Assembly: GCA_965249135.1 (NCBI GenBank)
Contig: OZ252220.1
Coordinates: 992,001-1,056,000 of the forward strand
Direction of reading: 5' to 3'
Source: Alphaproteobacteria bacterium
Lineage (GTDB): Bacteria; Pseudomonadota; Alphaproteobacteria; GCA-2746255
Length of the DNA stretch: 64,000 bases
The stretch's first letter is position 1; every line of letters begins with the position of its first letter. A program made the position numbers and the translations under genes. This document shows positions 19,884 to 62,461 of the stretch, piece after piece. The notes beneath the pieces were generated by a model. The model had not been told where the DNA came from. It saw only the letters and a list, made by a program, of their open reading frames with translations, and made no database searches.

Positions 19884-19958
19884 GCCGCCGTAGCTCAGTG
19901 GTAGAGCGCACCCTTGGTAAGGGTGAGGTCGAGTGTTCGATCCACTCCGGCGGCACCA
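19884..19958 (+). tRNA. tRNA-Thr (GGT); probable prophage attachment site
   Basis: GCCGCCGTAGCTCAGTGGTAGAGC...TTGGTAA...GTTCGATCC...CGGCGGCACCA. Confidence 0.97.
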
Positions 19959-20081
19959 CGAAACCCCTTGAAAATAAAGACTTGTAAAAATGTAGCGTCA
20001 AAACTAGTTACAGTTATTGACGGAACTTTACGAGAACTAACGTGCAATTACGATAAAATACGTGCAAAATCCGCGCACGCC

Positions 20082-20096
20082 GTTCTTGATGTGTTC
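20082..20096 (+). promoter_or_regulatory. Alphaproteobacterial LexA (SOS) box
   Basis: GTTC-ttgatgt-GTTC, just upstream of GGGAGG RBS and ATG 20113. Confidence 0.6.
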
Positions 20097-20294
20097 CCTA
20101 GGGAGGTTTCTTATGACAGCGAAAGACACATCATATCTGGAATTGCTGGAAGGGTTGGATCCACCGCACTAAGCGCGGCCTACTCAATGCCTGGTATCAT
20201 CATCAAGAACGGCAAGCCAATTCTGGCTTAAGGGAGTCAAGTATATAATTCCCCAAGCAAACACCAGTGGCCGTCATCGCCACATTTTATCCAT

Positions 20295-20654
20295 TTAACT
20301 GTCAGCATCATTCGATTCCTTCATTCCCGTAGTTGACGGCTGCCCCTTCTCGCCGTCCCGATAGACAAGCTCAAAGCTGTTTTCCAGAATACCGAGCCAG
20401 AGCTCGCGTTCGGACTTCGGCCATGTGTCGCCGGACTTGGGGAGCCGATTAATAATCCCCCGAATAATGAGGTCTAAACTGAGCTCATTGCCATCCCTGT
20501 CGCTCGCATCCGCACCATTGCTAACGTAGCTGGGCACATAGGAGTCGTACCCAGGTATAGTCAGTTGGCGACCTGAAGTTGTGTCACCACTTTGGATGCC
20601 CTTCGGGAATGTTTCAAGCTCTTCCACAGACGCGCCGGTTTTCCGAGCAGCCAT
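20295..20654 (-). CDS. Hypothetical protein
   Basis: GGAGG RBS; C-terminal LPKSGDTWP...WL......F.LVY. Confidence 0.55.
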   Translation of the reverse strand: MAARKTGASVEELETFPKGIQSGDTTSGRQLTIPGYDSYVPSYVSNGADASDRDGNELSLDLIIRGIINRLPKSGDTWPKSERELWLGILENSFELVYRDGEKGQPSTTGMKESNDADS

Positions 20655-20755
20655 TGGTCCCTCCCTAGCTTCCGTTTCTCGTTTTCGGCGAGTGTTCCAT
20701 ATAACAAGACTTTCCTGTTAACTTTTCGTTAATTAGGGGTATGGGTAGTGCCCCC

Positions 20756-20866
20756 TGCATCTGCAACAGAAAAGGTGTCATTTAAGTCACGATTTCGCCA
20801 CATCTCTGGCAGTTTAGCGGTGGCTCTTTCCCGGCGCTTTCTTGCTCATGATCCGTCCTCTTGTAA
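20756..20866 (+). repeat. 111-bp direct repeat, copy 1 (copy 2 at 22138-22248)
   Basis: Near-identical (2 mismatches) TGCATCTGCAACAGAAAAGG...CCTCTTGTAA. Confidence 0.92.
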
Positions 20867-20982
20867 TGTGACTCTGCTGTAAAGGAACGGCCCAGTAATG
20901 CCAACGCCAAAATGCGGTATTAGGTAGCAAACGCACCTAAAATCCCCTCAAATCTTCTCGTGGGATTTCATATGCTTAGGGC

Positions 20983-21417
20983 ATGGCCGAGCCGCACGTT
21001 GCCACCGCCCTGATCCGCAAGCGCGGGGAGATCGCCGGGCAAATCGAACACGCTCAAACGGTCCTCCGGCAACTCATCATCGACTTGGACAACCTAGACG
21101 CCACGTTGCGCCTATTCGTCCCTGACATCGAATTGGAGGACATCAAGCCAAGGCCCTTCCCGCCTCGTCACGCGGCCTTCAAGGGTGAGGTAACGCGGAT
21201 CGTGTTTGAAACCCTCAGGCAGGCCAATGAGCCGATGATGGCCCAGCAAATCGCTCAACGGGTCATGGCCGAGAGGGGGCTGAATGCTGCCGATAAACGG
21301 CTGGTTAGGCTGATTGGGAAGCGGGCCGGGGCCTGTCTAAGGCATTGGCGTAATAAGGGACTGCTCAAGTCGAATGCGGGCGTCGGACGGCGTATCGTTT
21401 GGGAGATTGCGGGTTAG
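20983..21417 (+). CDS. Hypothetical coiled-coil plus wHTH-like protein
   Basis: ALIRKRGEIAGQI...LDATLRLF; basic helical C-terminus. Confidence 0.7.
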   Translation: MAEPHVATALIRKRGEIAGQIEHAQTVLRQLIIDLDNLDATLRLFVPDIELEDIKPRPFPPRHAAFKGEVTRIVFETLRQANEPMMAQQIAQRVMAERGLNAADKRLVRLIGKRAGACLRHWRNKGLLKSNAGVGRRIVWEIAG

Positions 21418-21546
21418 TCGCTTTCCTTTTTCACCACTGACAGATTTGCCTTGTTGTCCTCTATGCGCTTCTTTCGGGCTGCCTCGTATCGCTTGCGAAC
21501 CTCCGGTTCGTCATCAAGACATCTGGCGATGTATTCTTCAACCGCC

Positions 21547-22071
21547 TCACGGATTTGTATTTATGGCCTCTTTCCAATGATCATCCAACTGGAATTGAGT
21601 CGCTGTCATTGCGGATTCATCAACCAGGTCAAGCTCTTCAAGGGTTTCAAGTATTAGGTCGCGCAGTAACTCTAACTCTTCGTCTGTTGCAAGACATGCA
21701 AAGAAAATAATTCGCAGAAGCTTTTCCGCATCACCGGGAATTTCGCACTGGCCTTTTTCCCACCGCGCAATTGATTGCGGATTGTTACCTAGACGTCCGG
21801 CCAATGCGCTTTGTGTAAGGTCTAAAGTATTCCGCAGAAATTTGACATCCTTACCTGTTAAACCTTTTCGCTTTGAAACAATGTGACGTCCAATCGCCAT
21901 ATGGAGTTCATCTACATTGCGGACAAAGACGTGGCGTTCCCCTTCATGCTTCTTAACATCATACCCATTCAGCAAATAGATGCCGTCCAGACCACACGCT
22001 TTGTAATGGTATGGCTCACTGCGGACTTCTTCCCCTATTCTGAAAAAATGATCGCTCATGAGTCTTCCCAT
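21547..22071 (-). CDS. XRE-family HTH antitoxin-like protein (MqsA/HigA-like)
   Basis: YHYKACGLDGIYL.NG; FLRNTLDLTQSALA..LG....IARWEKG. Confidence 0.75.
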   Translation of the reverse strand: MGRLMSDHFFRIGEEVRSEPYHYKACGLDGIYLLNGYDVKKHEGERHVFVRNVDELHMAIGRHIVSKRKGLTGKDVKFLRNTLDLTQSALAGRLGNNPQSIARWEKGQCEIPGDAEKLLRIIFFACLATDEELELLRDLILETLEELDLVDESAMTATQFQLDDHWKEAINTNP

Positions 22072-22733
22072 TCCACTGTCTTAATATAAGGGGATTATAT
22101 ACGAAAGTCACATTTTACCGATAAAGAGGATGGCCGGTGCATCTGCAACAGAAAAGGTGTCATTTAAGTCACGATTTCGCCACATCTCTGGCAGTTCAGC
22201 GGTGGCTCTTTCCCGGTGCTTTCTTGCTCATGATCCGTCCTCTTGTAACGCGTTATTTGCGCACCCTTGTAGCCTTCGCTTAGGTCCGCTAGATCATTGT
22301 CGGGGGCCCTGCCTAATTCATAACGCGCAGGCGCATCGCTGTTCTTTTGCTTCGCCATAATCGCATCATAGTGCTGATGTACATCAATGTACATTGATGC
22401 GCTTGCTGCCTAATGGGGAGTTAAGTATATAATTCCCAAATCAAAGACACCCATGTTGTCAGACGCCAAAATGCGAAGACGCACTTGCGGACGGACCGCG
22501 ATGGCAGGAAAAGCAACAACCTCGATTACATGGCTGGCGGCGGCTAAAGCCAGTAGGTGAAGCGCGGCTTCATAACGCGTTCATTCCTGTAATCGTCGAG
22601 ATTCCGGTACAGGTTGGCCGTTATGGAGCCGTCTTCATCGTCCCGGAATATTTCGCTCGCGATATAAATTTTATCGTCCAAGACGACGAGATAATCATAG
22701 TTTCTCAGCATCATCGCGGTGCTTCGTTTGCGC

Positions 22734-23255
22734 TTAGGCTTTTTTTGCGGCTTCGGTGAGGGCATCGGTTTTTTGCTTCGAGCCGGCCGAAGATCCGAAA
22801 TAGTAGCCGACCACGTCCTTGACCATCCAGCCAAGCGCGCCAAGCAAGACCAAGAACGGCTTCTCTACTCCGGCAGGCAGCGGAATGAATACCAAAGTGA
22901 ACATGATCCCGAAGAAGCCGGCGATGATCATCGTCCCCATGGCGGCCGGCGTCCGGTCCTTGACTTTTATTTCACGCCTGCGGGCGCTGTCGCGGTCCTT
23001 CATGGCAATCTCTTCGAGCTTGACGCCGGCGTTCTTCATCTCGATGGCAAACTTGTGATCGGCCTCTCGGATCTTGAGCGCGATCTCCGGGCCGCCGCTC
23101 TGGATGGCTGCCGCAAGATCATCCTCGCTTGCGTTCTCATCGCCGAGGAGTTCCCTGGCCAAGGTCTTGACCGCCATACCAGCAAGCGGGCCTCCGAAGA
23201 CTGTCGCGATACCTGGCGCGATTTCGCCAACAATCGACTTCCAATCGAAATCCAT
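22734..23255 (-). CDS. Holin-like membrane protein (3TM/GTA-holin type)
   Basis: DRDSARRRE, two TM helices, YYFGSS; adjacent to the lysozyme. Confidence 0.75.
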   Translation of the reverse strand: MDFDWKSIVGEIAPGIATVFGGPLAGMAVKTLARELLGDENASEDDLAAAIQSGGPEIALKIREADHKFAIEMKNAGVKLEEIAMKDRDSARRREIKVKDRTPAAMGTMIIAGFFGIMFTLVFIPLPAGVEKPFLVLLGALGWMVKDVVGYYFGSSAGSKQKTDALTEAAKKA

Positions 23256-23258
23256 TTC

Positions 23259-23669
23259 CTAACCCTCCAGGATTAGACCGGCGGCGCGCGTGGCGCGTTC
23301 GCCGACCTGTACGGCCCAGCGGCTGTTAAGCGCCTCCGCCGCTGCGTCTTCGAAATCTCCCAGCTCCATGGCGCCAAGCATCTTCTTGAACTGAGACAAG
23401 CGGGGCCAGCCAAGGTTGAGGCACATGTTCCTGAGCGCCCGCTGCCGCGGTTCGCTCATTTTCGTCCACCAGGGGACGTTCCCGTTCAGGTTGCGCCGTA
23501 CTTCTTCGAGATCGTTCCCGAGCAAGACCAGCGCTTCTGCTTCGGTGATCCCCCTGTCGTCCAGGTTCCTGCCGATGCCGATGGTGAGCTTGCCGGCCGT
23601 GTCCCGGTAAGGATGCAGCCGAAGCCCTTCGTCACGGATGAGGTCTTTGACGATTTCTTCCATCGTCAA
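23259..23669 (-). CDS. Phage lysozyme (T4-like endolysin)
   Basis: DEGLRL.PY.DT.G.LTIGIGRNL; NM..NLG; SRWA.QVG.RA. Confidence 0.92.
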   Translation of the reverse strand: MTMEEIVKDLIRDEGLRLHPYRDTAGKLTIGIGRNLDDRGITEAEALVLLGNDLEEVRRNLNGNVPWWTKMSEPRQRALRNMCLNLGWPRLSQFKKMLGAMELGDFEDAAAEALNSRWAVQVGERATRAAGLILEG

Positions 23670-24016
23670 AACCCCTTAAGCATCGCTGCCATGACCGGGT
23701 GGAGGAGCGGGACAAGATGGGTAGTTCCCATATCCAGCATCAAGACCACCAGGATCCCGTAGACGGCGGCTTTAAGTGATCTGTTGGATTTTGAGTTGTC
23801 CGCCAACGTGGCGAAGATCGAGCGCAGGATGAGAACCAAGGCGTTATAGCGATCCGTGCAGCGGGACGCATGCAGCGCAGGGTCGTCTATCTCGCGCGGG
23901 TCGAACTTGAGCGCCTCAAAATAATCGGCCTCACTGTGGTCATGGGGCGCCATGGGTTCACGGCCCTCCTGGGGTGCGTTGAGACCAGCGTTCCTTAAGC
24001 CTTTGGCCATAATCAC
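23666..24016 (-). CDS. Hypothetical membrane protein (lysis region)
   Basis: C-terminal TM helix; overlaps the lysozyme start. Confidence 0.55.
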   Translation of the reverse strand: MIMAKGLRNAGLNAPQEGREPMAPHDHSEADYFEALKFDPREIDDPALHASRCTDRYNALVLILRSIFATLADNSKSNRSLKAAVYGILVVLMLDMGTTHLVPLLHPVMAAMLKGF

Positions 24017-24104
24017 GTCTCATCCTTTTCTCAGCCATTGCGCGCCTCCTTGGGGTGTGTAGTGGTTAGGCCCTGGTCCTTGTTCACGCAGGGACCGGGG
24101 CTGC

Positions 24105-26543
24105 CTAGGTGCTAAAGCCTGTGATCCCCTTAAACAGCCTGATCGTGTCTTCCCCAAGATCCTTCTGTGACTCAGTATCCGAAATTATGGTGCCCAAAGC
24201 TGCGCCCATCGCCTTGATCTTAATGAAGTCCACAGGATCCTTCCGTCCTTTGCCCAGCAGGATTTTTTGTACGCTTTGCATAGTGAACATGCGCCCTACT
24301 CCGATATTTTCAGCGACGGTAATGAGGCCTTCAAGGCCACCACCGCGTAGGGTGGCAACGGCGCTTGCTCGCTGCAGTGATGTGCCGGCATCGGCACCGA
24401 CGCGCGAGAAGTCCTGAACGATTTCTGCGCTTTTCAGGATTCGAACATCCCCGAAGTCGAGGAACTTCAGAAGCCCGCGCTCTCCGAAGTCGGTAAGCGT
24501 TGATTGAAGCTTGTTGAAGTCCAGAACTTCCACGCCTCTGTTATCCACCTTTGACCGCCGCCAGATTTCATCAATGATCGCAGCCCTGCTCGATCTCCCG
24601 AACGGGGATTTCTTGCCGCCGTTCTTGGTGACGAGATCGAAGAACGCATTTATGCGGGCCGTATCGTTGGTGTCGAAGATGTCCCGGATAAAGCCCCGCG
24701 TTTGCCTTTGCTGCCGCATCGCATTCTGAACGCCGCTCGAGAATAGCCTGTCAATCTTAACGCCAGCTTGGCGCATGGCGGCCTGCTCATTGGCAGACAT
24801 CAGGACATTCAGTGTCTTTGAATCAAATTCGGCGAGTCGCTTTGTGATATTCCCAGGATCCGAGAAGAGATCGTTCTTGAAAGCATCCGTGAACTGCCTG
24901 AATTCCTTATCTGGGATGATCTTCTTAAGAACGACGAGATCGTCGATCTTGCCAGGTTTGGCCAGTTTACGCGCCATCGCTGTCGGCGTCTCGCTTCTGA
25001 CCACATCAATGACGGCCAGCTTCTCGCGAGTTTCGAATCGCTTCGCCGCCGACGTTCGTGCCGCCTTCCAAGCATTCCGGAATTCAGGACTCGCATTGGC
25101 AGGATCGTCCAAAACACCCTTGATCAGACCCTTCACCCTTGCGGCAACCGCTTGTGCCTCACGTGGCCCTTCCGGGCCTGCAAGGGTCAAATCATGAAGG
25201 CGTTTTTCCAGAGCACGAAGCTGTTCGGTTGGACCGACGACACGACCATTTTCCAGAGTCACGGAAGGCAGGTTTGGATCCAACTTGTCAATATCGTCGA
25301 TGACGCGAAGAAGCTCCGGGTCGAGATCATTGAGCGTGATTCGACTGCCTTCCTCAGTTTGACCGACAACACCCTGCTTGATGTCGTCTAGGTTTTTCTT
25401 CAGACCGACGATCTTGAAGCGTGGTTCCTGCACACTCCTAGCCGTCGCATAAAGAGTGTCGACGTCATTTCCTGACGTCTTCCACCATGCCTGAACGCCT
25501 TTTTGAAGCGCCCGGCCGCCTTTCCGGAAGCTGGAGGCCGCCGTTCTGGTTTGCTGCACTGCAAGATCAACAATGTCGTCTTTCGCCCGATTGAAGGCTT
25601 TGACCGTATCGGTAACGAAACGACGCCTGAGCGTGTTGTTGGTGAGGCCCTTCACGGCCTTGGCGGTGCGTGCTTCCTGATCCGCGATATATCGGCTAAT
25701 TCGCGTGGATAGCGCCCTAGATTGGCTTCCAAGAGCACCAATGATAGGCACGTCGGATGCTTGATTCGGGAGAAGCGATCGTGTGCCGAGTCGTTCTGCA
25801 GAGCGCATCGCACGTTGAGCGCCAGGTAGGGTTTGGAGAACCCCAGCCTGCCGAACCACGTTTATGCCGCCGGCAACGCCTGCGCCAAGGGTGAACCCGA
25901 TGAGCGACTGGCCACTAGCACCGACGATTTCCTCGAGTTGTTCCCCACCCGTCTCCCTCTGGGTCCCCTTGATGGTCTGGGCGGTCTGCTGCAGGGCCTC
26001 CCCAGTGGCGCCGCCACCCCCCACTCGGAGGAGGTCGGACAAAAACTGCTTAGCCCCAGGCTTTCGAAATGCGAAAAGAACAGCGACTTCTCCGACGACA
26101 TTCGGGATTTCTCCAGCGACGTCGGCTACGTCGCCTAGCACTTCCTTGCCCGCGTCGGTCAGGCTAAAGCCGAAGAGTTCGGTAAAACCAGCGTCGACTT
26201 TCCTGAATTTCTCGCTCGGATTGTTCCGATAGATGACGAGTCCTGACACAGGGACTTTGATGAGCTCGCCCTTTGGATTGAAGGATTCGAAGGCCGCTTT
26301 CTGTTCTTCAAAGGTATCCCCAAACAGGCTAAGTAGGGCTCTTGTACCAACGCCAGCGCCTGGCTTACCCAAACTTTCCTGACCTACGAAGGTTGCGGCA
26401 AACTGCTCAGGCGAGATGTTTTTCTCACGCATCTCGAGCCTAGCCATCGCTTCATTGACGTCGCTGTCTTGGCCAGCGGCTTCAATGCCTTGTTTGCGCC
26501 CAAGGCGCTCCATGGCGTCATCAATTAAGGCTTCATTCGCCAA
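24105..26543 (-). CDS. Large ejection / internal virion protein
   Basis: About 810 aa, helical with a Gly/Ala-rich segment; last of three genes after the tail module; TTG start uncertain. Confidence 0.6.
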   Translation of the reverse strand: MANEALIDDAMERLGRKQGIEAAGQDSDVNEAMARLEMREKNISPEQFAATFVGQESLGKPGAGVGTRALLSLFGDTFEEQKAAFESFNPKGELIKVPVSGLVIYRNNPSEKFRKVDAGFTELFGFSLTDAGKEVLGDVADVAGEIPNVVGEVAVLFAFRKPGAKQFLSDLLRVGGGGATGEALQQTAQTIKGTQRETGGEQLEEIVGASGQSLIGFTLGAGVAGGINVVRQAGVLQTLPGAQRAMRSAERLGTRSLLPNQASDVPIIGALGSQSRALSTRISRYIADQEARTAKAVKGLTNNTLRRRFVTDTVKAFNRAKDDIVDLAVQQTRTAASSFRKGGRALQKGVQAWWKTSGNDVDTLYATARSVQEPRFKIVGLKKNLDDIKQGVVGQTEEGSRITLNDLDPELLRVIDDIDKLDPNLPSVTLENGRVVGPTEQLRALEKRLHDLTLAGPEGPREAQAVAARVKGLIKGVLDDPANASPEFRNAWKAARTSAAKRFETREKLAVIDVVRSETPTAMARKLAKPGKIDDLVVLKKIIPDKEFRQFTDAFKNDLFSDPGNITKRLAEFDSKTLNVLMSANEQAAMRQAGVKIDRLFSSGVQNAMRQQRQTRGFIRDIFDTNDTARINAFFDLVTKNGGKKSPFGRSSRAAIIDEIWRRSKVDNRGVEVLDFNKLQSTLTDFGERGLLKFLDFGDVRILKSAEIVQDFSRVGADAGTSLQRASAVATLRGGGLEGLITVAENIGVGRMFTMQSVQKILLGKGRKDPVDFIKIKAMGAALGTIISDTESQKDLGEDTIRLFKGITGFST

Positions 26544-46892: not shown

Positions 46893-47768
46893 ATGAACTT
46901 GATGACCATCTTCAGCCTTTACCCCAATCAGGAAGCCTGCATCGAACACCTTGAAGCCGTGCGTTGGCGCGACGAAGCGAATTGCCCGCACTGTGGCGGC
47001 CTGCGCGTTTCACGCAAGACCGACACACACCGCATTGGACGCTGGAACTGCTACGATTGCAAATCCAGCTTCAACGTCCTGTCGGGGACGATCTTCGAGA
47101 AGACGAAGGTTGAACTGCAAAGGTGGTTTCTCGCCATCGGATTGATCGTCAATGCGAAGAAAAGCATGTCCAGTTACCAACTGGCCCGCGATCTCGAATT
47201 GAATCAGAAAACGGCGTGGTATATCCAGCAGCGCATCCGCACTGCGATGGCGGCCGATCAGGCTCCATTGCTTCGCGGCATCGTCGAAGCCGACGAAACC
47301 TATGTCGGGGGAAAGCCACGCAAGGGCAACAAGCACGGCGGCGATACGCCAAACCGGCGCGGACGCGGAACCAAGAAGATGCCGGTCATCGGAGCCGTGG
47401 AGCGCGGCGGGAAGGTCGTGGCCCGCATGGCCGACGATCTTAGCGGCAAGGGCCTTCTCCGGTTCATCAAGGACACCGTAGACGCGAATGAAACGCTGCT
47501 GATTACCGACGAATACCGGGGCTACATGGGCATGCGCCGCCATGTCCGGCACGCCGTCATCAATCACAGTGTCTCCTACGCGGACGGCGAAACGCACACC
47601 AACACCATCGAAGGCTTTTGGTCGCTTCTCAAGCGGGCTTGGTACGGATCGCATCACCACTATACCCGCCACTTTTCGCCACTGTTCATTGCCGAATCGA
47701 ACTGGAAATACAACCACCGCAAGGACGAAGACGGGTTCGGTTCCTTCCTGCGGGGGTGCTTCGCATGA
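46893..47768 (+). CDS. IS1595-family DDE transposase
   Basis: CPHC..CYDC Zn ribbon, VEADETYVGG, LITDEY..Y, HTNTIEGFWSLLKR. Confidence 0.95.
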   Translation: MNLMTIFSLYPNQEACIEHLEAVRWRDEANCPHCGGLRVSRKTDTHRIGRWNCYDCKSSFNVLSGTIFEKTKVELQRWFLAIGLIVNAKKSMSSYQLARDLELNQKTAWYIQQRIRTAMAADQAPLLRGIVEADETYVGGKPRKGNKHGGDTPNRRGRGTKKMPVIGAVERGGKVVARMADDLSGKGLLRFIKDTVDANETLLITDEYRGYMGMRRHVRHAVINHSVSYADGETHTNTIEGFWSLLKRAWYGSHHHYTRHFSPLFIAESNWKYNHRKDEDGFGSFLRGCFA

Positions 47769-49255
47769 ACCAGTTGTACTATGGCGACTGCCTTACCATC
47801 ATGCGCGATCACATGAAATTAGGCAGCGTGGATCTGATTTATCTCGACCCGCCCTTCAACTCGAACCGTGAATACAGCGCGATCTACAAGGACGAAACCG
47901 GACGCCCTTTGCCGGATCAAATCGAGGCGTTTTGCGATCTATGGGAACTGGACGAAGAGCGCGAGCGGTCCTTGCGAACCATGCCGATATTGATGCGGGA
48001 AGCCGGTATCGAGGATGAGGCGGTCGATTTCTGGCGGCTATGGATGAACGCGCTGCGCGGCGTTCAGCCCCGTTTGTTGGCCTATTTGTCGTACATGACG
48101 GAGCGATTGCTACCCATGCGCGGGCTTCTCAAGCCTACCGGCTCGATCTATCTACACTGCGACCCAACTGCCTCGCATTATATCAAGGTAATGATGGATG
48201 CGGTTTTCGGGCACAAGAATTTCAGAAACGAGATTGTTTGGCACCGGCACGGTGGATTTAAGAGGAGCAGCGCCAAGCAGTTTCCCCAGAAGAACGATAT
48301 CCTTCTGTTCTACGCAAAATCAACTGGAGACTTGGTGTTCAACACCCAATACAAACTCCACAAGCCAGAATATATCCGACGTTTCAAAAAAGACAGGAGC
48401 GGCCGCCTATACCGAGACGATGTGAACCCAACCAAGGGCGGCCGCAGGACGATCTACCTGGATGAAACCAAGGGCGATATCATTGATACGGTTTGGACCA
48501 ACATTCCGCCAGTAAATCCCAACGCACGCGAGCGCATGGGCTACGCGACACAAAAGCCGCTTGCCCTGCTTGAGCGCATCATCAAGGCAAGCTCCAACAA
48601 GGGCGACGTAGTGTTCGACCCATTTTGCGGGTGTGCCACCACCCTTGAGGCGGCCCACAAGCTGGGCCGCAAGTGGATCGGTATTGATATAGCCATTCAC
48701 GCGATCAAGCGCGTGGCGCGGATTCGCCTGCAAGATCGTCTGGGCCTTCTCGAGGGAACGGACTTCGCCATCGACGGGGTGCCGCGCACGCTGGAAGGCG
48801 CGCGCGATCTGTGGACGCGCGACAAGTACCACTTCCAGAAGTGGGCCGTGGAAGAAATCGACGGCTTTGTGACCACGAAGCGCACGGCGGACGGCGGGGT
48901 AGACGGCAGGCTTTACTTCGGCGTGCCCGACGAGCCGGATTTGCAAAGCATGGCAATTGAAGTGAAGGGCGGGAAGAACGTCGGAATCAACGTCATACGC
49001 GAGCTTCGCGGCGTCTTGGACAGCGATGAGGCGCTTATCGCTGGTTTGATCATCATGGAGCCTCTTGGTGCCACGAAGGAACGGAATTTCAAGCGTTTCA
49101 TGGCCGATGCGGAGGATTTGGACGTGCTGGGCGTTCTCTACCCAAGGATGCAGATACTGACAATTGCAGAAATCCTCGAAGGAAAGCGGTTTCTGACGCC
49201 AAGCGTGGCGGGCAGGGGGGTGGCGGAACCGAAGTTGCCGCTGGCCTTGACATAG
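47765..49255 (+). CDS. N6/N4 DNA methyltransferase (beta class) with a C-terminal Mrr-like domain
   Basis: DPPF, YATQKP, DPFCGCAT; C-terminal DGGVDG...IEVKGG. Confidence 0.9.
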   Translation: MNQLYYGDCLTIMRDHMKLGSVDLIYLDPPFNSNREYSAIYKDETGRPLPDQIEAFCDLWELDEERERSLRTMPILMREAGIEDEAVDFWRLWMNALRGVQPRLLAYLSYMTERLLPMRGLLKPTGSIYLHCDPTASHYIKVMMDAVFGHKNFRNEIVWHRHGGFKRSSAKQFPQKNDILLFYAKSTGDLVFNTQYKLHKPEYIRRFKKDRSGRLYRDDVNPTKGGRRTIYLDETKGDIIDTVWTNIPPVNPNARERMGYATQKPLALLERIIKASSNKGDVVFDPFCGCATTLEAAHKLGRKWIGIDIAIHAIKRVARIRLQDRLGLLEGTDFAIDGVPRTLEGARDLWTRDKYHFQKWAVEEIDGFVTTKRTADGGVDGRLYFGVPDEPDLQSMAIEVKGGKNVGINVIRELRGVLDSDEALIAGLIIMEPLGATKERNFKRFMADAEDLDVLGVLYPRMQILTIAEILEGKRFLTPSVAGRGVAEPKLPLALT

Positions 49256-53164: not shown

Positions 53165-53698
53165 TCATGCGGCGTCTTCTTTTTTGGGATCTCGCCACAT
53201 CACTACCATTGCATTGCTGAGTGCTTCCATGAGAACTGGGATCGGCACTCCGACAGAAACAGTCACCCAGCCTTCGTTTTTGGCAACGATCTTTGGGTGT
53301 TTTTTTATCCATTCTCGGTGATTCGCCCGCCACGCCAGGCGTAGGGTTTGGAATGGCAGCAAGTAGCACATGCGGGAAGGTACGAAAGCGTAGGCTATAA
53401 AATCCGTGGCCAAGTCTTTGGCAACCCAGCCTGGTGTTTTGCAGTCGCGGTCACTCCAATATTCAAGGCAAATGTCGGGATAGACTTTATCGCGGACCTT
53501 CTCATCCACCGAAAGAGTCTTGCCGCTTTTAAGCGTGAGAACGCGATCAATCCCGCCGCGTTGAGCCCAGCCATCATTCCTAACGCAAACGGCGCTGGCA
53601 AGATCTGGAAATGCCGCTCGATAAACATCAAGCCACCATGACGCGTCGGCATGGGCGTGCGACTTGGCAAGGCTGTTGGAGAAGTTATGTATTGTCAC
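53165..53698 (-). CDS. PD-(D/E)XK nuclease-like protein
   Basis: Q..GID...SVDEK.R...PGW. Confidence 0.6.
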   Translation of the reverse strand: MTIHNFSNSLAKSHAHADASWWLDVYRAAFPDLASAVCVRNDGWAQRGGIDRVLTLKSGKTLSVDEKVRDKVYPDICLEYWSDRDCKTPGWVAKDLATDFIAYAFVPSRMCYLLPFQTLRLAWRANHREWIKKHPKIVAKNEGWVTVSVGVPIPVLMEALSNAMVVMWRDPKKEDAA

Positions 53699-54729
53699 GC
53701 CGCCTCCGCCTCATCACCCCAACCGTCCCAGCCTTCCCGCGGTTCCCCCCGAAGAAAAAGTTCCAGGCGATTCGCGTCTGGGTACATTTGTTCGATGATT
53801 TCATAAAACTCGTCAGGCTTGGCGCTGTGCTGCAGGCGCGGCGCGTTTACCACTGAAGCTGGGCGTGCCGATTCGTCAGGCGGTGGTAACTCACCCCGCT
53901 TCCCTATAAGCAGGATTTCATGCTTGTTACGGGCGTGGTAGCCCATGCCGATCTTGTCTTTCACCCAGACCATGCAAGTCCGATAGGTGAAGCCCCAGGC
54001 ATCAATAACTTGGAAGCATTCGGCGAGTTTGGGTGCCGTTACCCACAGAAAAAGCATGGCGTCTTCCGCCGCAACGCTGTCCACTCCTAATGCACAAATC
54101 TCATCTAAATCCATTGTGGAATATTGGTTTTCAATGCTGCGATTCGAGCCGCCGATAGGCGGATTTTCGTACCGCCAAGGTGGATCTGCATAAATGACGG
54201 TGTATTTGCCTGATTTCAGGGCTCCCAGAGATTTTGCTTTGCGGATTTTGTCTTGGCTTCGACGCCTGACGTGCGTTCTCAATTCGTTACGAGACCAACC
54301 TCCTTTTTCAGCCTTATCGAGAAATTTGTCCTGCTCGTTAGGCTCAAGGGAGGCCACTTCCCTGTGGTGATTCCATGAAAGAACTTCGCGCCGGCGCGAA
54401 GTTTCAATCTGACGCGCAACCCAACCGGCATCGGCTAATGTTTGAAATTTATACCCCTCGCTACCAACCGCCTGGCTCGCCCGTTCCCCATAACTATGCT
54501 CGCCATAGGCCCACCAGTCTCCCACCCACCACATGACGCTCCCGCCGGCGCGTTGGAGCCATTGGCCTGCCGCTTGCCATTCTTCAAACGTCAAGCCGTG
54601 CCTCAATTCAAGGCCGGCCGGATCTAGCCTGCCAGGTATTAGAATTGTAGTTTCTTGCTTGACGGGCTTCTTGGTCACGCCCCCGCCCTCCTGATTGGTA
54701 ATTCGATGTGTGTTAGACTTAGATTTCAC
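53695..54729 (-). CDS. MT-A70 family adenine methyltransferase
   Basis: IYADPPW, LFLWVT, WGF.Y, HS.KP, LELF.R; N-terminal WW.GDW domain. Confidence 0.9.
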   Translation of the reverse strand: MKSKSNTHRITNQEGGGVTKKPVKQETTILIPGRLDPAGLELRHGLTFEEWQAAGQWLQRAGGSVMWWVGDWWAYGEHSYGERASQAVGSEGYKFQTLADAGWVARQIETSRRREVLSWNHHREVASLEPNEQDKFLDKAEKGGWSRNELRTHVRRRSQDKIRKAKSLGALKSGKYTVIYADPPWRYENPPIGGSNRSIENQYSTMDLDEICALGVDSVAAEDAMLFLWVTAPKLAECFQVIDAWGFTYRTCMVWVKDKIGMGYHARNKHEILLIGKRGELPPPDESARPASVVNAPRLQHSAKPDEFYEIIEQMYPDANRLELFLRGEPREGWDGWGDEAEAA

Positions 54730-56722: not shown

Positions 56723-56775
56723 TGTTCCGTGAGGTGCAACTTTTTCTTGACACGCTGTTCCGTCTAGTGCAACAT
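56723..56775 (+). promoter_or_regulatory. Early promoter with two operators
   Basis: TGTTCCGTGAGGTGCAACT and TGTTCCGTCTAGTGCAACA flanking TTGACA(56747)-N17-CAACAT. Confidence 0.8.
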
Positions 56776-56801
56776 ACCTCCAACGATCAACGGAGGCAGC
56801 C

Positions 56802-57116
56802 ATGCCAGAATACCTCACCCCCCGAGACGCGGCCCGCGAGGCAGAGAGCCTGGAGAGCGAGAAAGCAATCCTCGCCCGGCTCCTCGAGGCGTTTGACGCC
56901 TTCCTCTCGGCCACTAGGGACGCCATCGGCGACCTAAATCATCCCTCCGAAATCGAATCCTTCCTTGAAATGCTGGAGTCAGCCGACGCCGACTACTTGA
57001 GAGCGGCTTTCCGGGAAATCAACGAAAAGATCAGCGAGGCCCGTTCCGCTGAGGACACCTTCTACGAAAACCAGGAACGCTCCCAGACCGCCTTCCGGCA
57101 GGCAGGTGTGCGGTGA
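56802..57116 (+). CDS. First early-operon protein (acidic, helical)
   Basis: GGAGG RBS; its 3' end is part of the amplified unit. Confidence 0.75.
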   Translation: MPEYLTPRDAAREAESLESEKAILARLLEAFDAFLSATRDAIGDLNHPSEIESFLEMLESADADYLRAAFREINEKISEARSAEDTFYENQERSQTAFRQAGVR

Positions 57117-57775
57117 CGCATCAGATTAAAAATCGTTTTAGCGGAGCCGTCATTTTCGAGGCAGTTACGGACCTGCGTGGGGCGGACCTGCACGGGGCGG
57201 ACCTGCACGAGGCGGGCCTGCGCGAGGCGGACCTGCGCGAGGCGGACCTGCGCGGGACGAACCTGCGCGGGGCGGACCTATTCGATGCGGACCTGTGTTG
57301 GGCGAACCTGCGCGAGGCGGACCTGCGCGGGGCGAACCTGCGCGGGGCGGGCCTGCACGGGGCGGACCTGTGCGGGGCGGACCTGCGCGGGACGAACCTG
57401 CGCGGGGCGGACCTGCGCGGGGCGGACCTGTACAAGGCGGACCTGCGCGGGGCGGACCTGCGCGAGACGGACCTGCGCGGGGCGGACCTGTGTGAGGCGA
57501 ACCTGCGCGGGGCGGACCTGCGTTGGGCGGACCTGCGCGAACAGGGCATTTTGCAAATCAATGGCGGCCTGGCCTGGCCCATTTTAATCTGGCCAACCGA
57601 AATGACTATCGGCCGTGAATGCCACACCCATGAAGAGTGGAGTGCGTTTTCCGACCGCAAAATTGCTGCGATAGACGGCAAGAATGCCCTGACGTTCTGG
57701 CGCGAAAATAAGGACTGGCTTTTAGATCGCTGCCGGTGGGCCGCCACGTTCCAGAAAAAAGAGAGGGCGTCATGA
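57113..57775 (+). CDS. Pentapeptide repeat protein, copy 1 (25 repeats)
   Basis: A(D/N)Lxx repeats between a conserved N-cap and C-terminal domain. Confidence 0.92.
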   Translation: MTHQIKNRFSGAVIFEAVTDLRGADLHGADLHEAGLREADLREADLRGTNLRGADLFDADLCWANLREADLRGANLRGAGLHGADLCGADLRGTNLRGADLRGADLYKADLRGADLRETDLRGADLCEANLRGADLRWADLREQGILQINGGLAWPILIWPTEMTIGRECHTHEEWSAFSDRKIAAIDGKNALTFWRENKDWLLDRCRWAATFQKKERAS

Positions 57776-57873
57776 CCCGGCAGGCCATCCAGGAGGCCCG
57801 TTCCGCCGGGGACACCTTCTGCGAAAACCAGGAACGCTCACAAACCGCCTTCCGCCAGGCGGGTGTGCGGTGA
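57772..57873 (+). CDS. Chimeric linker mini-ORF (33 aa)
   Basis: MTRQAIQEARSAGDTFCENQERSQTAFRQAGVR; ATGA and GTGA overlaps. Confidence 0.6.
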   Translation: MTRQAIQEARSAGDTFCENQERSQTAFRQAGVR

Positions 57874-58724
57874 CGCATCAGATTAAAAATCGTTTTAACG
57901 GAGCCGTCATTTTCGAGGCAGTTACGGACCTGCGCGAGACGGACCTGCATGGGGCGGACCTGCGCGAGGCGGACCTGCACGGGGCGGACCTATACGGGGC
58001 GGACCTGCGCGGGGCGGACCTGCGTGTGACGGACCTGCACGGGGCGAGCCTGCACGGGGCGATTCTGCACGAGTCGGACCTGCGCGGGGCGAACCTGCGT
58101 GGGGCGAACCTGCGCGGGGCGGACCTGCGCGGGGCGAACCTGAGCGGGGCGGACCTGCACGGGACGATTCTGTGCGAGGCGGACCTGCGCGAGGCGAGCC
58201 TATACGGGGCGGACCTGAGCGGGGCGGACCTGTGTGGGGCGGGCCTGCACGGGGCGGACCTGCGCGAGGCGAACCTGCGCGAGGCGAGCCTGTACAAGGC
58301 GGACCTATACGGGGCGAACCTGAGCGGGGCGGACCTATACGGGGCGAACCTGAGCGGGGCGGACCTGCGCGGGGCGGACCTGCACGGGGCGAGCCTATAC
58401 GGGGCGGACCTATACGGGGCGAAGCTGAGCGAGGCGGACCTGCACGGGGCGGACCTGCGCGGGGCGAACCTGCACGGGGCTGACCTGAGCGAACTGGGCA
58501 TTTTGCAAATTAATGGCTTGGCCTGGCCTGTTTTAATCGGGCCAACCAAAATGACTATCGGCTGTGAATGCCATGCCCATGAAAAGTGGAGTGCGTTTTC
58601 CGACCACAAAATTGTTGCGATGTACGGCAAGAATGCCCTGACGTTCTGGCACAAAAATAAGGACTGGCTTTTAGATCGCTGCCGGTGGGCCGCCACGTTC
58701 CAGAAAAAAGAGAAGGCATCATGA
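57870..58724 (+). CDS. Pentapeptide repeat protein, copy 2 (38 repeats)
   Basis: As copy 1; most diverged C-terminal domain. Confidence 0.92.
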   Translation: MTHQIKNRFNGAVIFEAVTDLRETDLHGADLREADLHGADLYGADLRGADLRVTDLHGASLHGAILHESDLRGANLRGANLRGADLRGANLSGADLHGTILCEADLREASLYGADLSGADLCGAGLHGADLREANLREASLYKADLYGANLSGADLYGANLSGADLRGADLHGASLYGADLYGAKLSEADLHGADLRGANLHGADLSELGILQINGLAWPVLIGPTKMTIGCECHAHEKWSAFSDHKIVAMYGKNALTFWHKNKDWLLDRCRWAATFQKKEKAS

Positions 58725-58819
58725 CCCGGCAGGCCATCCAGGAGGCCCGTTCCGCCGGGGACACCTTCTGCGAAAACCAGGAACGTTCCCAGACCGCCTT
58801 CCGCCAGGCAGGTGTGTGA
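58721..58819 (+). CDS. Chimeric linker mini-ORF (32 aa)
   Basis: ATGA and TGATG overlaps. Confidence 0.6.
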   Translation: MTRQAIQEARSAGDTFCENQERSQTAFRQAGV

Positions 58820-59646
58820 TGACGCATCAGATTAAAAATCGTTTTAGCGGAGCCGTCATTTTCGAGGCAGTTACGGACCTGCGCGAGGCGGACCTGCGTG
58901 GGGCGATTCTGCACGAGGCGGGCCTGCGCGGGGCGGACCTGCACGGGGCGGACCTGTGCGAGACGAACCTGCGCGAGGCGGACCTGCACGGGACGGACCT
59001 GCGCGGGGCGGACCTGCACAAGGCGATTCTGCGCAAGGCGGGCCTGCGCGGGGCGGACCTGTGCGGGGCGAACCTGCGCGGGGCGGACCTATTCGAGGCG
59101 GGCCTGCACAAGGCGGACCTGCACAAGACGGACCTGCGCGGGGCGAACCTGTGTTGTGCGGACCTGCGCAGGGCGGACCTGCGTGGGGCGGACCTGCACG
59201 GGGCGGACCTGCACGAGGCGGGCCTGCGCGAGGCGATTCTGCGCAAGGCGGACCTGCGCGAGGCGGGCCTGCGCAGGGCGAAACTGCGTGGGGCGGACCT
59301 GCGTGGGGCGGACCTGGGCAAGGCGGACCTGCGCGAGGCGGACCTGCGCGGGGCGGACCTATACGGGGCGAACCTGCGCGGGGCGGACCTGCGTGGGGCG
59401 GACCTGCGCGAACAGGGCATTTTGCAAATCAATGGCGGCCTGGCCTGGCCCATTTTAATCTGGCCAACCGAAATGACTATCGGTTGTGAATGCCACACCC
59501 ATGAAGAGTGGAGTGCGTTTTCCGACCACAAAATTGTTGAGATAGACGGCAAGAATGCCCTGACGTTCTGGCGCGAAAATAAGGACTGGCTTTTAGATCG
59601 CTGCCGGTGGGCCGCCACGTTCCAGAAAAAAGAGAGGGCGTCATGA
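58819..59646 (+). CDS. Pentapeptide repeat protein, copy 3 (36 repeats)
   Basis: As copy 1. Confidence 0.92.
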   Translation: MTHQIKNRFSGAVIFEAVTDLREADLRGAILHEAGLRGADLHGADLCETNLREADLHGTDLRGADLHKAILRKAGLRGADLCGANLRGADLFEAGLHKADLHKTDLRGANLCCADLRRADLRGADLHGADLHEAGLREAILRKADLREAGLRRAKLRGADLRGADLGKADLREADLRGADLYGANLRGADLRGADLREQGILQINGGLAWPILIWPTEMTIGCECHTHEEWSAFSDHKIVEIDGKNALTFWRENKDWLLDRCRWAATFQKKERAS

Positions 59647-59741
59647 CCCGGCAGGCCATCCAGGAGGCCCGTTCCGCCGGGGACACCTTCTGCGAAAACC
59701 AGGAACGCTCCCAGACCGCCTTCCGCCAGGCAGGTGTGTGA
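59643..59741 (+). CDS. Chimeric linker mini-ORF (32 aa)
   Basis: ATGA and TGATG overlaps. Confidence 0.6.
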   Translation: MTRQAIQEARSAGDTFCENQERSQTAFRQAGV

Positions 59742-60523
59742 TGACGCATCAGATTAAAAATCGTTTTAGCGGAGCCGTCATTTTCGAGGCAGTTACGGAC
59801 CTGCGCGAGGCGGACCTGCGCAGGGCGGACCTGCACGGGGCGGACCTGCACGGGGCGGACCTGCGCGGGGCGGACCTGCGCGAGGCGGACCTGAGCGGGG
59901 CGGACCTGCACAAGGCGATTCTGCGCAAGGCGGGCCTGCGTGGGGCGGACCTGTGCGGGGCGAACCTGCGCGGGGCGGACCTATTCGAGGCGGGCCTGCA
60001 CAAGGCGGACCTGCACAAGACGGACCTGCGCGGGGCGGACCTGCGCGGGACGCACCTGCGCGGGGCGGACCTGCACGGGGCGGACCTGTACAAGGCGGAC
60101 CTGCGCGAGGCGATTCTGCGCAAGGCGGACCTGCGCGGGACGAACCTGCGCAGGGCGGACCTGCGCGGGGCGGACCTGCGTGGGGCGGACCTGCGCAGGG
60201 CGGACCTGCACGGGGCGGACCTGCGTGGGGCGGACCTGCGCAGGGCGGACCTGCACGGGGCGGACCTGAGCGAGGCGGACCTGCGCGAACAGGGCATTTT
60301 GCAAATCAATGGCGGCCTGGCCTGGCCCATTTTAATCTGGCCAACCGAAATGGCTATCGGCCGTGAATGCCACACCCATGAAGAGTGGAGTGCGTTTTCC
60401 GACCGCAAAATTGCTGCGATAGACGGCAAGAATGCCCTGACGTTCTGGCGCGAAAATAAGGACTGGCTTTTAGATCGCTGCCGGTGGGCCGCCACGTTCC
60501 AGAAAAAAGAGAGGGCGTCATGA
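59741..60523 (+). CDS. Pentapeptide repeat protein, copy 4 (33 repeats)
   Basis: As copy 1. Confidence 0.92.
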   Translation: MTHQIKNRFSGAVIFEAVTDLREADLRRADLHGADLHGADLRGADLREADLSGADLHKAILRKAGLRGADLCGANLRGADLFEAGLHKADLHKTDLRGADLRGTHLRGADLHGADLYKADLREAILRKADLRGTNLRRADLRGADLRGADLRRADLHGADLRGADLRRADLHGADLSEADLREQGILQINGGLAWPILIWPTEMAIGRECHTHEEWSAFSDRKIAAIDGKNALTFWRENKDWLLDRCRWAATFQKKERAS

Positions 60524-60786
60524 CCCGCGCCCTTGCCCGTACCGGAGATCCCATTACCTCCCATGCGGCGGCGGATTTCGTCACGCCACATCTGACCAAC
60601 CTTGAGCAGAAGGTTCTCCAGGCGTTAGAGGATTCGCGTTACGGGCTCACCACAAAACAAATTGCCGAAAAGACCGGGATTGACCGGGTCACAGTAAGCC
60701 CACGGATGAAGCCCCTTAAGAATAAAGGCTTGGTTGTTCGTACCGAATCCCGGCGCGACGGCTCGCAGGTATGGAGGGCGGCGTGA
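60520..60786 (+). CDS. Winged-HTH protein
   Basis: ARTGDP.TSH.AA; GLTTKQIAE.TG....VSPR..PL..KGLV. Confidence 0.75.
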   Translation: MTRALARTGDPITSHAAADFVTPHLTNLEQKVLQALEDSRYGLTTKQIAEKTGIDRVTVSPRMKPLKNKGLVVRTESRRDGSQVWRAA

Positions 60787-61637: not shown

Positions 61638-61823
61638 ATGAACCGGATCGACTTCGAGACACGCGCTTGGGAGATCCTCAACAATATCTCCACGCTGGAG
61701 AGACTTGCCGCCGCCGATCCCGAAGGCGCACGACACGTAAGAGATTGGCTGGCTGACGCGAGCGGCCGGCTTGTCTGCCTATTGGCGAAAATTGAAAGCG
61801 GCCGTTTCAGAAAGGCCGGCTAA
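61638..61823 (+). CDS. Phage hypothetical protein
   Basis: GAGGG RBS; TAATG coupling to the nuclease gene. Confidence 0.5.
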   Translation: MNRIDFETRAWEILNNISTLERLAAADPEGARHVRDWLADASGRLVCLLAKIESGRFRKAG

Positions 61824-62461
61824 TGCCACATCAAATCTACCGGACGAAAGACGGCACGCGCGTCCCCTCCGTCACTACCGTGATTTCCCGTTTCAAGGAA
61901 TCCGGCGGCCTCATTCATTGGGCCTGGCAAGAAGGTGTAGATGGCCGGGACTACCGGGAAACCCGCGACAAGGCGGCGGACGCCGGCACCCTCGCGCATT
62001 TGCTCGTCGAACAATGGATCAAGGGAGATACGCCGGACATCGAAGGGCCGGAAGATGTGGTGCAAAAAGCCCAAGCCGCTTTCGGGGCGTTTCTTGAATG
62101 GGCAGGCCAAACACAACTCAAAGTCATCCATTCCGAAGTTCCCTTGATTTCTGAAAAACACCGCTTCGGCGGATGCCTTGACGCCATGCTTATCAAAGGG
62201 AAATTGGCGATCGGCGATTGGAAGACTTCGAATCGCATCTACCAGGACCATCTGATTCAGATTGCAGCTTACGGCGAATTGTGGAGCGAGAATTTTCCCG
62301 CTCAACCGATCGGGGGCGGCTATCACATCATCCGCTTTGCAAAAGATCATGGCGACTTCGCGCACCATTATTTCCCCGACCTTTCGGATGCGTGGCGCGC
62401 CTTTGAACTCATGCGGGAACTTTACGACATCGACAAATCATTGAAGAAGCGGGCAGCGTAA
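61823..62461 (+). CDS. Cas4-like PD-(D/E)XK exonuclease
   Basis: PSVTT, GT.AH, G..D, DWKTS, Q..AY. Confidence 0.85.
   Translation: MPHQIYRTKDGTRVPSVTTVISRFKESGGLIHWAWQEGVDGRDYRETRDKAADAGTLAHLLVEQWIKGDTPDIEGPEDVVQKAQAAFGAFLEWAGQTQLKVIHSEVPLISEKHRFGGCLDAMLIKGKLAIGDWKTSNRIYQDHLIQIAAYGELWSENFPAQPIGGGYHIIRFAKDHGDFAHHYFPDLSDAWRAFELMRELYDIDKSLKKRAA

Follow-up and report, generated by a model that had tools for sequence, protein, structure and literature searches.

We analysed a stretch of 64,000 nucleotides, positions 992001-1056000 of the single 2,118,282-bp contig (OZ252220.1) of an Alphaproteobacteria bacterium; this stretch is called the window, and positions are given within it unless marked as contig coordinates. 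On its + strand, at 57113-60523, lie four intact tandem genes for pentapeptide-repeat proteins (PRPs), named A1 to A4 (Table 1). All four match the Pfam family PF00805, with E-values of 5.7e-49 to 2e-81 and scores of 164-267 bits against a cut-off of 20.2. Tandem Repeats Finder reports 15-nt arrays of 24.8, 37.8, 35.8, and 32.8 copies with 0% indels, and parsing from the end of the N-terminal cap (N-cap) gives exactly 25, 38, 36, and 33 pentapeptides built on GCGGACCTGCGCGGG. An initial reading of this DNA, hereafter the original prediction, had described four tandem paralogues with the same unit numbers, which the open reading frames (ORFs), the PF00805 matches, and both repeat analyses confirm. 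From A1 to A4, both the N-cap (MTHQIKNRF.GAVIFEAVTDLR) and the final ~77 residues show little or no change. The protein sequences differ by 15-26% and the unit counts by 3-13, each length difference between copies being a multiple of 15 nt.

Table 1. Genes and other features of the pentapeptide-repeat array and its surroundings in the window.
Feature	Position	Strand	Description
Cro/CI-type helix-turn-helix (HTH) regulator, 68 aa	55648-55854	-	Pfam HTH_31/HTH_3, E 1e-13; PHROG transcriptional repressor families; divergent from the next gene
Second HTH regulator of the immunity region, 131 aa	55897-56292	+	Pfam HTH_31/HTH_26/HTH_3; PHROG regulators
Putative promoter, TTGACA at 56747-56752	56725-56773	+	Read by eye; lies between two TTCCGT..GTGCAAC copies (56725-56740, 56758-56773)
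orf104	56802-57116	+	First gene of the operon; acidic orphan (isoelectric point 4.46); stop overlaps the A1 GTG start (GTGA)
Left boundary of the duplicated unit	57036-57112	+	Last 77 nt of orf104, reused as inter-copy spacer; from alignment of upstream regions
PRP copy A1, 220 aa	57113-57775	+	25 units; repeat-region net charge -8; alpha flavour
A1 conserved C-terminal domain	57539-57772	+	Beta-meander plus helices; equivalents at the 3' ends of A2-A4
Chimeric mini-ORF 1, 33 aa	57772-57873	+	ATGA overlap with the A1 stop; GTGA overlap with the A2 start
PRP copy A2, 284 aa	57870-58724	+	38 units; charge -17, four acidic faces; beta flavour; type II C-terminus
Chimeric mini-ORF 2, 32 aa	58721-58819	+	
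PRP copy A3, 275 aa from ATG	58819-59646	+	GTG at 58816 possible (276 aa); 36 units; charge -2, one basic face; gamma flavour
Chimeric mini-ORF 3, 32 aa	59643-59741	+	
PRP copy A4, 260 aa from ATG 59741	59741-60523	+	261 aa from 59738; 33 units; charge -2, one basic face; gamma flavour
Winged-helix (MarR_2-like) gene, 88 aa	60520-60786	+	ATG overlaps the A4 stop
PD-(D/E)XK exonuclease	61823-62461	+	Same operon as the array; Pfam PDDEXK_1; phrog_298 exonuclease, E 6e-29

The AlphaFold2 model of full-length A1 is a regular beta-helix with one strand per five residues and a predicted local distance difference test (pLDDT) value of 86.7. Comparison of this model with the PDB using Foldseek returned only PRPs as top matches (E 1.8e-10 and weaker), with MfpA, QnrB1, and AlbG among them (E 4e-7 to 9e-5). 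Together with the fixed inward positions of the units described below, the model and its matches bear out the beta-helix with inward-facing Ala and Leu that had been proposed from the letters. In each protein, a short N-cap is followed by a pentapeptide beta-helix that runs without interruption and differs in length between copies, and then by a conserved C-terminal alpha/beta domain of ~65 residues. A homodimer prediction with two copies of A1 scored 0.24 against a mark of 0.42, which is evidence neither for nor against a dimer.

Analysis of the junctions shows how the array was formed. The spacers between copies, 91-94 nt long, consist of the last 77 nt of orf104 followed by ATGACCCG, the first 8 nt of the downstream winged-helix gene. 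In mini-ORF 1, ATGACCCG corresponds to the first three codons of the winged-helix gene (Met-Thr-Arg), fused to the orf104 tail. Every junction is a mini-ORF of 32-33 residues whose own ATG overlaps the preceding stop (ATGA) and whose own stop overlaps the next start. The duplicated unit spans 57036 to just beyond each PRP stop (0.75-0.95 kb), and the original prediction had begun its array at 57036, exactly where the spacer homology to the orf104 tail begins. This unit, in which the PRP gene is flanked by the orf104 tail and the initial 8 nt of the winged-helix gene, was duplicated by unequal recombination. Owing to this composition, each junction forms a mini-ORF that keeps the stop/start overlap, and the whole operon remains translationally coupled. 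A sequence scan found no terminator-like site on the + strand within the array. Open frames of up to 280 residues also run antisense and out of frame across every PRP copy (57121-60591); the 15-nt unit is stop-free, and these frames are therefore by-products, not genes.

A second array, which the original prediction had overlooked, lies in another prophage 84 kb downstream of the window array, at contig 1136249-1138362. It contains three PRP copies, B1 and B2 with 220 residues and 25 units each and B3 with 199 residues and 21 units. The same orf104 precedes it and the same winged-helix gene and exonuclease follow it, whereas the upstream neighbour differs: a 237-residue ORF (contig 1134425-1135138) with an HTH N-terminus and a peptidase-like C-terminus, probably a LexA/CI-type S24 repressor as read by eye rather than from a family scan. 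Only about 5 kb of early operon is common to the DNA of the two prophages. All seven copies are intact and in frame, with no sign of on/off phase switching in this genome. They can be divided into three flavours according to their repeat surfaces. In the alpha flavour (A1, B1, and B2, all with 25 units), the repeat region carries a net charge of -7 to -9 with two acidic faces. In the beta flavour (A2 and B3, 38 and 21 units), all faces are acidic, with charges of -17 and -13, and position 4 of the unit is rich in S, Y, and H. In the gamma flavour (A3 and A4, 36 and 33 units), the charge is -2 and one face is basic (+4 and +6, respectively). At least two flavours are kept in each prophage. A host cluster of larger, distantly related pentapeptide-repeat ORFs is found at contig 322279-326405 on the - strand, with open frames of 441 and 468 residues that are 36-50% identical to the A1 repeats; some pieces of this cluster carry stop codons.

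Comparison of the units between copies revealed several traces of exchange. Units 13-18 of A3 are identical to units 11-16 of A4, a run of six 15-nt units that is reached in none of 500 unit shuffles and whose flanks are unlike on both sides; the longest exact stretch common to the two genes is 96 nt. This run is the block common to copies 3 and 4 that had been noticed originally. Units 2-4 of A1 also equal units 22-24 of A3, out of register, a match reached in 5 of 500 shuffles. In all 18 units with the CTA codon for Leu, which are spread over all seven genes, the codon at position 4 begins with T, and in B2 two adjacent beta-type CTA-TAC units stand in place of alpha-type units, so that unit lineages are copied as whole units. 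The DNA encoding the C-terminal domain is likewise a mosaic: A2 and B3 share a variant block of which A3 has part, B2 shares its 3' end with B3, and the four possible gametes all occur at pairs of sites, for example columns 17 and 63. These observations support variation of the repeats by unit slippage combined with gene conversion or unequal crossing-over. The repeat regions acquire and lose 15-nt units, take up unit lineages and blocks that spread inside one gene or from one of the seven to another, and accumulate transitions. Such behaviour is that of a coding minisatellite with gene conversion, for which the term diversification system, used in the original prediction, is an overstatement.

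Slippage and inter-copy recombination free of reverse transcriptase, as that prediction had it, is supported by the shared runs, the mosaic sites, the distance of the reverse transcriptase genes, and the length alleles of a related phage gene described below. As far as can be judged from sequence, a diversity-generating retroelement is excluded, since the nearest RVT_1 gene is at least 76 kb from the array and neither a template nor an adenine-specific pattern is present. The five RVT_1 genes are identical 393-residue ORFs with RVT_1 as sole domain (contig 253408, 432521, 574405, 971056, and 1214008), and resemble a retroelement present in several copies, for example a group II intron, unrelated to the arrays. 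No template-like copy was found in the genome, where the window array matches only itself and the second array.

A family member in Rheinheimera Barba phages offers a second view of repeat turnover. Among 111 matching records, we compared eight isolates chosen for differing match coordinates. Their downstream 2.5 kb is 99.9-100% identical, yet the gene has six length alleles, of 498 (two isolates), 558 (two isolates, with different sequences), 559, 573, 619, and 677 nt, with all differences in the 3' part of the repeats. Five of the eight sequences are in frame and three out of frame, one of the latter with an ambiguous base; the out-of-frame alleles may be assembly errors. The length alleles represent an independent case of fast unit-number change in a related phage gene. 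One paper describes a 375-bp (25 x 15) deletion in a PRP gene, not necessarily of the present family, among Caulobacter phages that otherwise differ by two to four bases (PMC11053796). The Barba phages also carry a second repeat gene two ORFs upstream (at about 300-1470 of the locus), annotated as "pentapeptide" (PF01469), which measures 963 nt in Barba35A and 978 nt in the other seven isolates examined.

Site variation was analysed over the 203 units of A1-A4 and their paralogues B1-B3, which comprise 62 distinct 15-mers and 48 distinct peptides. Leu is present in 203 of 203 units (CTG in 185, CTA in 18), and position 1 is Ala in 177 (GCG in 176), Thr in 25, and Ser in one, an Ala/Thr toggle of 12%. 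The second position of the Ala codon and the first and second positions of the Leu codon are invariant throughout. Position 2 is occupied by D, N, G, I, S, K, or H, position 4 by R, H, C, Y, S, F, or G, and position 5 by G, E, K, R, W, D, V, or C, so the originally described invariant Leu, near-invariant Ala, and lists of variable residues hold over the whole set. Minor alleles reach 0, 4, 0, 9, 15, and 3% at the synonymous transition sites and 22, 8, 18, 25, 12, and 37% at the six outward non-synonymous ones, and outward non-synonymous diversity is about four times the synonymous diversity. Transitions account for 338 of the 382 differences from the consensus, and 353 of the 382 are G/C-to-A/T changes, an excess that is expected because the 15-nt unit has 13 G/C positions. 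Deamination of methyl-cytosine in CpG or GCGC contexts was rejected as the sole cause of the R/H/C/Y variation: the CpG at positions 2-3 of the Ala codon shows no synonymous G-to-A change in 203 units, and the most variable site (position 14) lies outside CpG.

A1, B1, and B2 are the only trio that can be cleanly aligned. In this trio, the ratio of non-synonymous to synonymous divergence (pN/pS) is 1.8-2.7 in the repeats compared to 0-0.13 in the C-terminal domain, and the variable columns comprise 30 non-synonymous and six synonymous ones. Outward non-synonymous changes affect 25 of 179 sites and synonymous changes six of 105 (Fisher p = 0.03); the contrast between outward and inward non-synonymous changes gives p = 0.04 in the same test. 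The fold, carried by the inward Ala and Leu, appears to be under strong purifying selection, while the outward residues seem to be unconstrained.

The last ~65 residues carry the motif GLxWPVxIxxxxMxIGCExHxxxEWxxFxDxxIxxMDGxxAxxFW. The C-terminal domain that contains it, also missed by the original prediction, defines the family. It belongs to no Pfam or NCBIfam family, and its only matches are phrog_31567 (E 3.4e-7 with the domain alone) and phrog_37032, both without assigned function. A HMMER search of 1.84 billion representatives returned 510 proteins at E <= 0.001, 11 at 1e-10, and, at 1e-30, only the copy of this genome. In the relatives, the domain is always C-terminal and is preceded by pentapeptide repeats, by YdcK-like or other solenoids, or by almost nothing; two relatives carry the module twice in one chain. 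Most have a helical linker after the N-cap, which is absent from the copies described here. A Pfam scan of 61 family members found only repeat families and one weak ChapFlgA match (E 0.0065). The NCBIfam equivalog "Alr5209" was set aside as a repeat artefact, its cut-off being passed by A2-A4 only through summing four repeat stretches on a model of 113 positions.

The isolated C-terminal domain has a predicted fold of high confidence (pLDDT 90.1), with four short strands followed by helices. No counterpart was found in the PDB, where the best Foldseek match has an E-value of 1.4 and the best VIA-align match a Z-score of 4.1; sequence-profile matches in the PDB all fall on the residual PRP part and none on the domain. 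In the BFVD database of viral models, the domain matches the C-termini of phage PRPs, five of them at E <= 0.001 with template-modelling (TM) scores of 0.70-0.74.

The family appears to be phage-borne and usually present in a single copy. Thirteen phage records match the domain of the window; when a relative (P0040) is used as query, 140 of 50,697 phage records match, always in one place per record, so that arrays of four and three copies seem unusual among the records searched. Single-copy relatives include Caulobacter phage BL94 gp020, Jess A, and RapA, Acinetobacter phage Acba_11 ORF092, and Rheinheimera Barba phage gp043. In phage BL94 the relative directly follows DNA polymerase I, and relatives are also found by helicase genes. 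In a spring-water podovirus the relative stands beside ParB and RepA, in EBPR podovirus 1 it is the first gene upstream of RecT and exo, and in Acba_11 it lies between CI and a RecA-like gene. The domain was found in none of five genomes of the same genus, and in none of 400 other genomes of the phylum at E <= 1e-5 with 12 candidates scored per genome. A word-index protein search returned only the copy of this genome, and a search of genome contigs with the domain found no relative, nor did a search of viral contigs.

From these data, we propose that the PRPs of both arrays are early-expressed accessory factors of the phage replication/recombination module, whose rods would bind or occlude DNA-handling proteins of the host or of competitors. 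Candidate targets of the rod surfaces are nucleases, topoisomerases, or defence enzymes. The conserved C-terminal domain would supply a constant function, such as anchoring, oligomerisation, or an effector role, and the array would present three surfaces together: one acidic on every side, one with two acidic faces, and one near neutral with a single basic face. An early, host-directed role is favoured by relatives that repeatedly open or sit within replication/recombination modules adjoining immunity regions, by the coupling of the genes to orf104 and to the exonuclease operon, by the preservation of seven reading frames, and by the retention of flavours in both prophages. To the explanation as a whole, that is, the array of paralogues, its formation, its evolution, and its early binding function, we give a probability of about 0.5; the functional part is more tentative and falls somewhat short of an even chance.

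Several points weigh against this proposal, and some of them favour its main rival, neutral minisatellite dynamics, in which the copies are redundant or nearly dispensable, only the fold is selected, and the outward variety, the unit numbers, and the extra copies are by-products. The function is read from gene position and protein shape, and a look through 14 sequencing runs turned up no RNA run. The copy order comes from the assembly, no short contig spanning two copies. The Cys of the IGCExH motif, conserved in at least 90% of the family, is Arg (CGC) in five of the seven copies (A1, at 57614-57616, as well as A4, B1, B2, and B3) and is kept only in A2 and A3, with a clade-specific Cys two residues later. 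The selection signal is modest (p about 0.03-0.12, from few sites and non-independent pairs) and both gene conversion and a GC bias in codon use confound it. Between A1 and B1, the spacers diverge by about 3% and the repeats by 4.3%, values so close that much of the variation is explained by neutral drift where constraint is absent. Because the tests are small, the pairs non-independent, and the spacers nearly as divergent as the repeats, we read the outward positions as free of constraint with only a hint of diversifying selection; such selection on the three outward positions is a suggestion, not proof. The mostly non-synonymous variation described in the original prediction holds. Were the three out-of-frame alleles of the eight Barba isolates real, the gene would be dispensable in culture. 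Neutrality would also agree with the outward variability typical of all PRPs and with the single copy in 140 of 140 phage records, which indicates that an array is not needed for the function of the family. However, all seven copies have remained intact although slippage-prone repeats could shift the frame, the length differences are all multiples of 15, translational coupling is kept at every junction, both prophages hold at least two flavours, and outward non-synonymous diversity exceeds the synonymous diversity about fourfold. Taken together, we consider the neutral explanation rather unlikely, even as the most serious competitor of the early-binder proposal.

The original prediction had seen in the array a repertoire of DNA mimics resembling Qnr and MfpA and directed against host gyrase or DNA-binding defence enzymes. 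The beta-helix is indeed the fold of MfpA, QnrB1, and AlbG, A2 and B3 are acidic on four faces, and the genes are located in an early operon upstream of an exonuclease, the place where lambdoid phages keep Gam and Ral. Gyrase-inhibiting phage peptides exist, according to a review (PMC10886550). Nevertheless, A1-A4 score only 45.5, 79.2, 63.8, and 64.8 bits with the NCBIfam model of Qnr (NF033086, cut-off 240) and 53.6, 88.1, 60.3, and 65.4 bits with that of MfpA (NF000349, cut-off 360). The Qnr beta-helix is interrupted by two loops, whereas the repeat regions here are uninterrupted runs of 25-38 units without Qnr-type loops, and A3 and A4 are close to neutral overall and have one basic face each. 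Among the top 150 matches, 109 have an N-terminal part of at least 40 residues, and the 64 of these that a crude rule assigns to the PRP type carry a median of -2.5 charges per 100 residues, ranging from -9 to +6.7; in relatives the solenoid can also be a non-PRP repeat or be absent. A mimic repertoire aimed at gyrase or defence enzymes therefore fits poorly, and we regard it as improbable; charge-based mimicry confined to the acidic copies is slightly less so, yet still doubtful.

A benefit to the lysogen, in which the array is expressed from the prophage to exclude phages or to shield the host, for instance from topoisomerase poisons, would suit genes that adjoin the immunity region in both prophages, and PMC10886550 reports that chromosomal PRPs shield gyrase from toxins. 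Against this, none of the four copies, nor orf104, matches any of 5027 PADLOC defence models, the genes are co-oriented and translationally coupled with recombination genes of the lytic cycle, and relatives in phages stand beside DNA polymerase and helicase genes, so that we judge this role very improbable. The remaining alternative, strain variants of one gene concatenated by the assembly, was addressed with Logan contigs of four runs (X1-X4) from one sample, which cover the array in pieces of 64-700 nt. The source looks metagenomic with variants present (other letters in runs X2-X4), no Logan contig spans two copies, and a few 134-nt bins are uncovered in some runs. On the other hand, the unique pieces of each copy were matched exactly, a contig with the upstream sequence of the other prophage appears as a loose end at 56777, and the genome is one 2.12-Mb contig. 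Differences of 15-26% in protein sequence and of 3-13 units exceed strain variation, the junctions are precise and coding-consistent, and the second array exists with its own flanks. The short contigs verify the assembly in part, for the unique portion of every copy though not for the links between copies, and we consider an artefact hardly credible.

The array can be compared with several known systems. It shares with Qnr, MfpA, AlbG, and McbG the right-handed quadrilateral beta-helix with inward Ala and Leu, and some copies are acidic; unlike these proteins, the copies remain below the family cut-offs, are loop-free, and end in a C-terminal domain without PDB relative, and the genes are phage-borne, tandemly multiplied, and variable in length, with two copies near neutral. 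Single-copy phage PRPs with the same C-terminal domain have the N-cap motif, homogenised lineage-specific units, and the early replication/recombination setting in common with the arrays, but occur once per genome instead of four plus three times, mostly with the helical linker that is missing here. Coding minisatellites and contingency loci resemble the arrays in their unit-multiple length changes, shared unit lineages, and mosaic paralogues, and differ in that evidence of phase switching is absent here and all seven copies are in frame. As in diversity-generating retroelements, the changes cluster at surface residues of a binding scaffold that a phage encodes, here without a nearby reverse transcriptase, a template repeat, or an adenine-specific pattern. 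Np275 and Np276 of Nostoc punctiforme (PDB 2J8I/2J8K) are likewise neighbouring PRP genes and a close structural match; they are chromosomal and two in number, and we know of no conserved C-terminal domain or recent unit homogenisation in them. What is new here is the second array, the chimeric mini-ORF junctions, the six length alleles in Barba phages, and an undescribed PRP family with a novel C-terminal domain that, among the genomes searched, is uniquely multiplied in this one.

To our knowledge, pentapeptide-repeat proteins are common in phages and none has a known function; in the literature searched, we found neither a phage PRP whose function had been studied nor any such work on PRP arrays. 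Three leads follow from the present analysis: a conserved C-terminal domain, unmatched in Pfam and the PDB, as the hallmark of a phage family with about 510 sequence clusters; a natural series of lengths and surfaces, directly comparable, in seven paralogues and in six alleles from eight near-identical Barba phages; and the repeated occurrence of the genes in early replication/recombination modules, a part of phage genomes that houses anti-host factors. A broader and distinctly unlikely extension is that the family represents widespread and so far unrecognised modular binders of phages, with a constant domain of ~65 residues and new fold joined to a solenoid rod whose length and exposed residues are rewritten fast by slippage and inter-copy conversion, and with arrays whose acidic, mixed, and basic-faced rods would jointly neutralise several host DNA-handling or defence proteins. 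If so, it would be a counterpart, free of reverse transcriptase, of the logic of diversity-generating retroelements or variable lymphocyte receptors, and the arrays of four and three copies would be its most developed form. Should the rods prove to be adaptive binders, they would illustrate how viruses can diversify protein surfaces simply by recombination and offer a candidate source of new counter-defence proteins or engineerable scaffolds; if they are not adaptive, the arrays still show, in clean form, a coding minisatellite undergoing concerted evolution.

The surroundings of the window array agree with the prophage location originally assigned to it. PHROG matches in the window include portal, major head/capsid, and tail-fibre proteins, an amidase, two DNA methyltransferases, a clamp-like processivity factor, and the exonuclease, and the G+C content falls at about 20 kb of the window beside a tRNA gene (19884-19955). 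HTH regulators adjoin the array, as expected for the repressor-controlled early operon of the original prediction, in which the control itself is suggested by gene position. The consensus promoter scan did not flag the TTGACA site at 56747-56752. No Pfam, NCBIfam, or PADLOC family was found for orf104, whose sole relative lies within the same genome. The two DNA methyltransferases of the prophage are encoded at 47618-49255 and 53695-54729 (phrog_67 and phrog_359). Two long direct repeats (2325 bp and 1765 bp, each 99.8% identical) bracket the prophage, at window 19912-24105 and contig 1058659-1063558, the left one beginning at the tRNA gene, and may reflect tandem or nested integration at one attachment (att) site. 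A single stretch at window 22088-22446 is 98-99% identical to three head-to-tail copies of ~357 bp at contig 1105140-1106207, and one more copy of this element is located on the opposite strand at contig 1978073-1978401.

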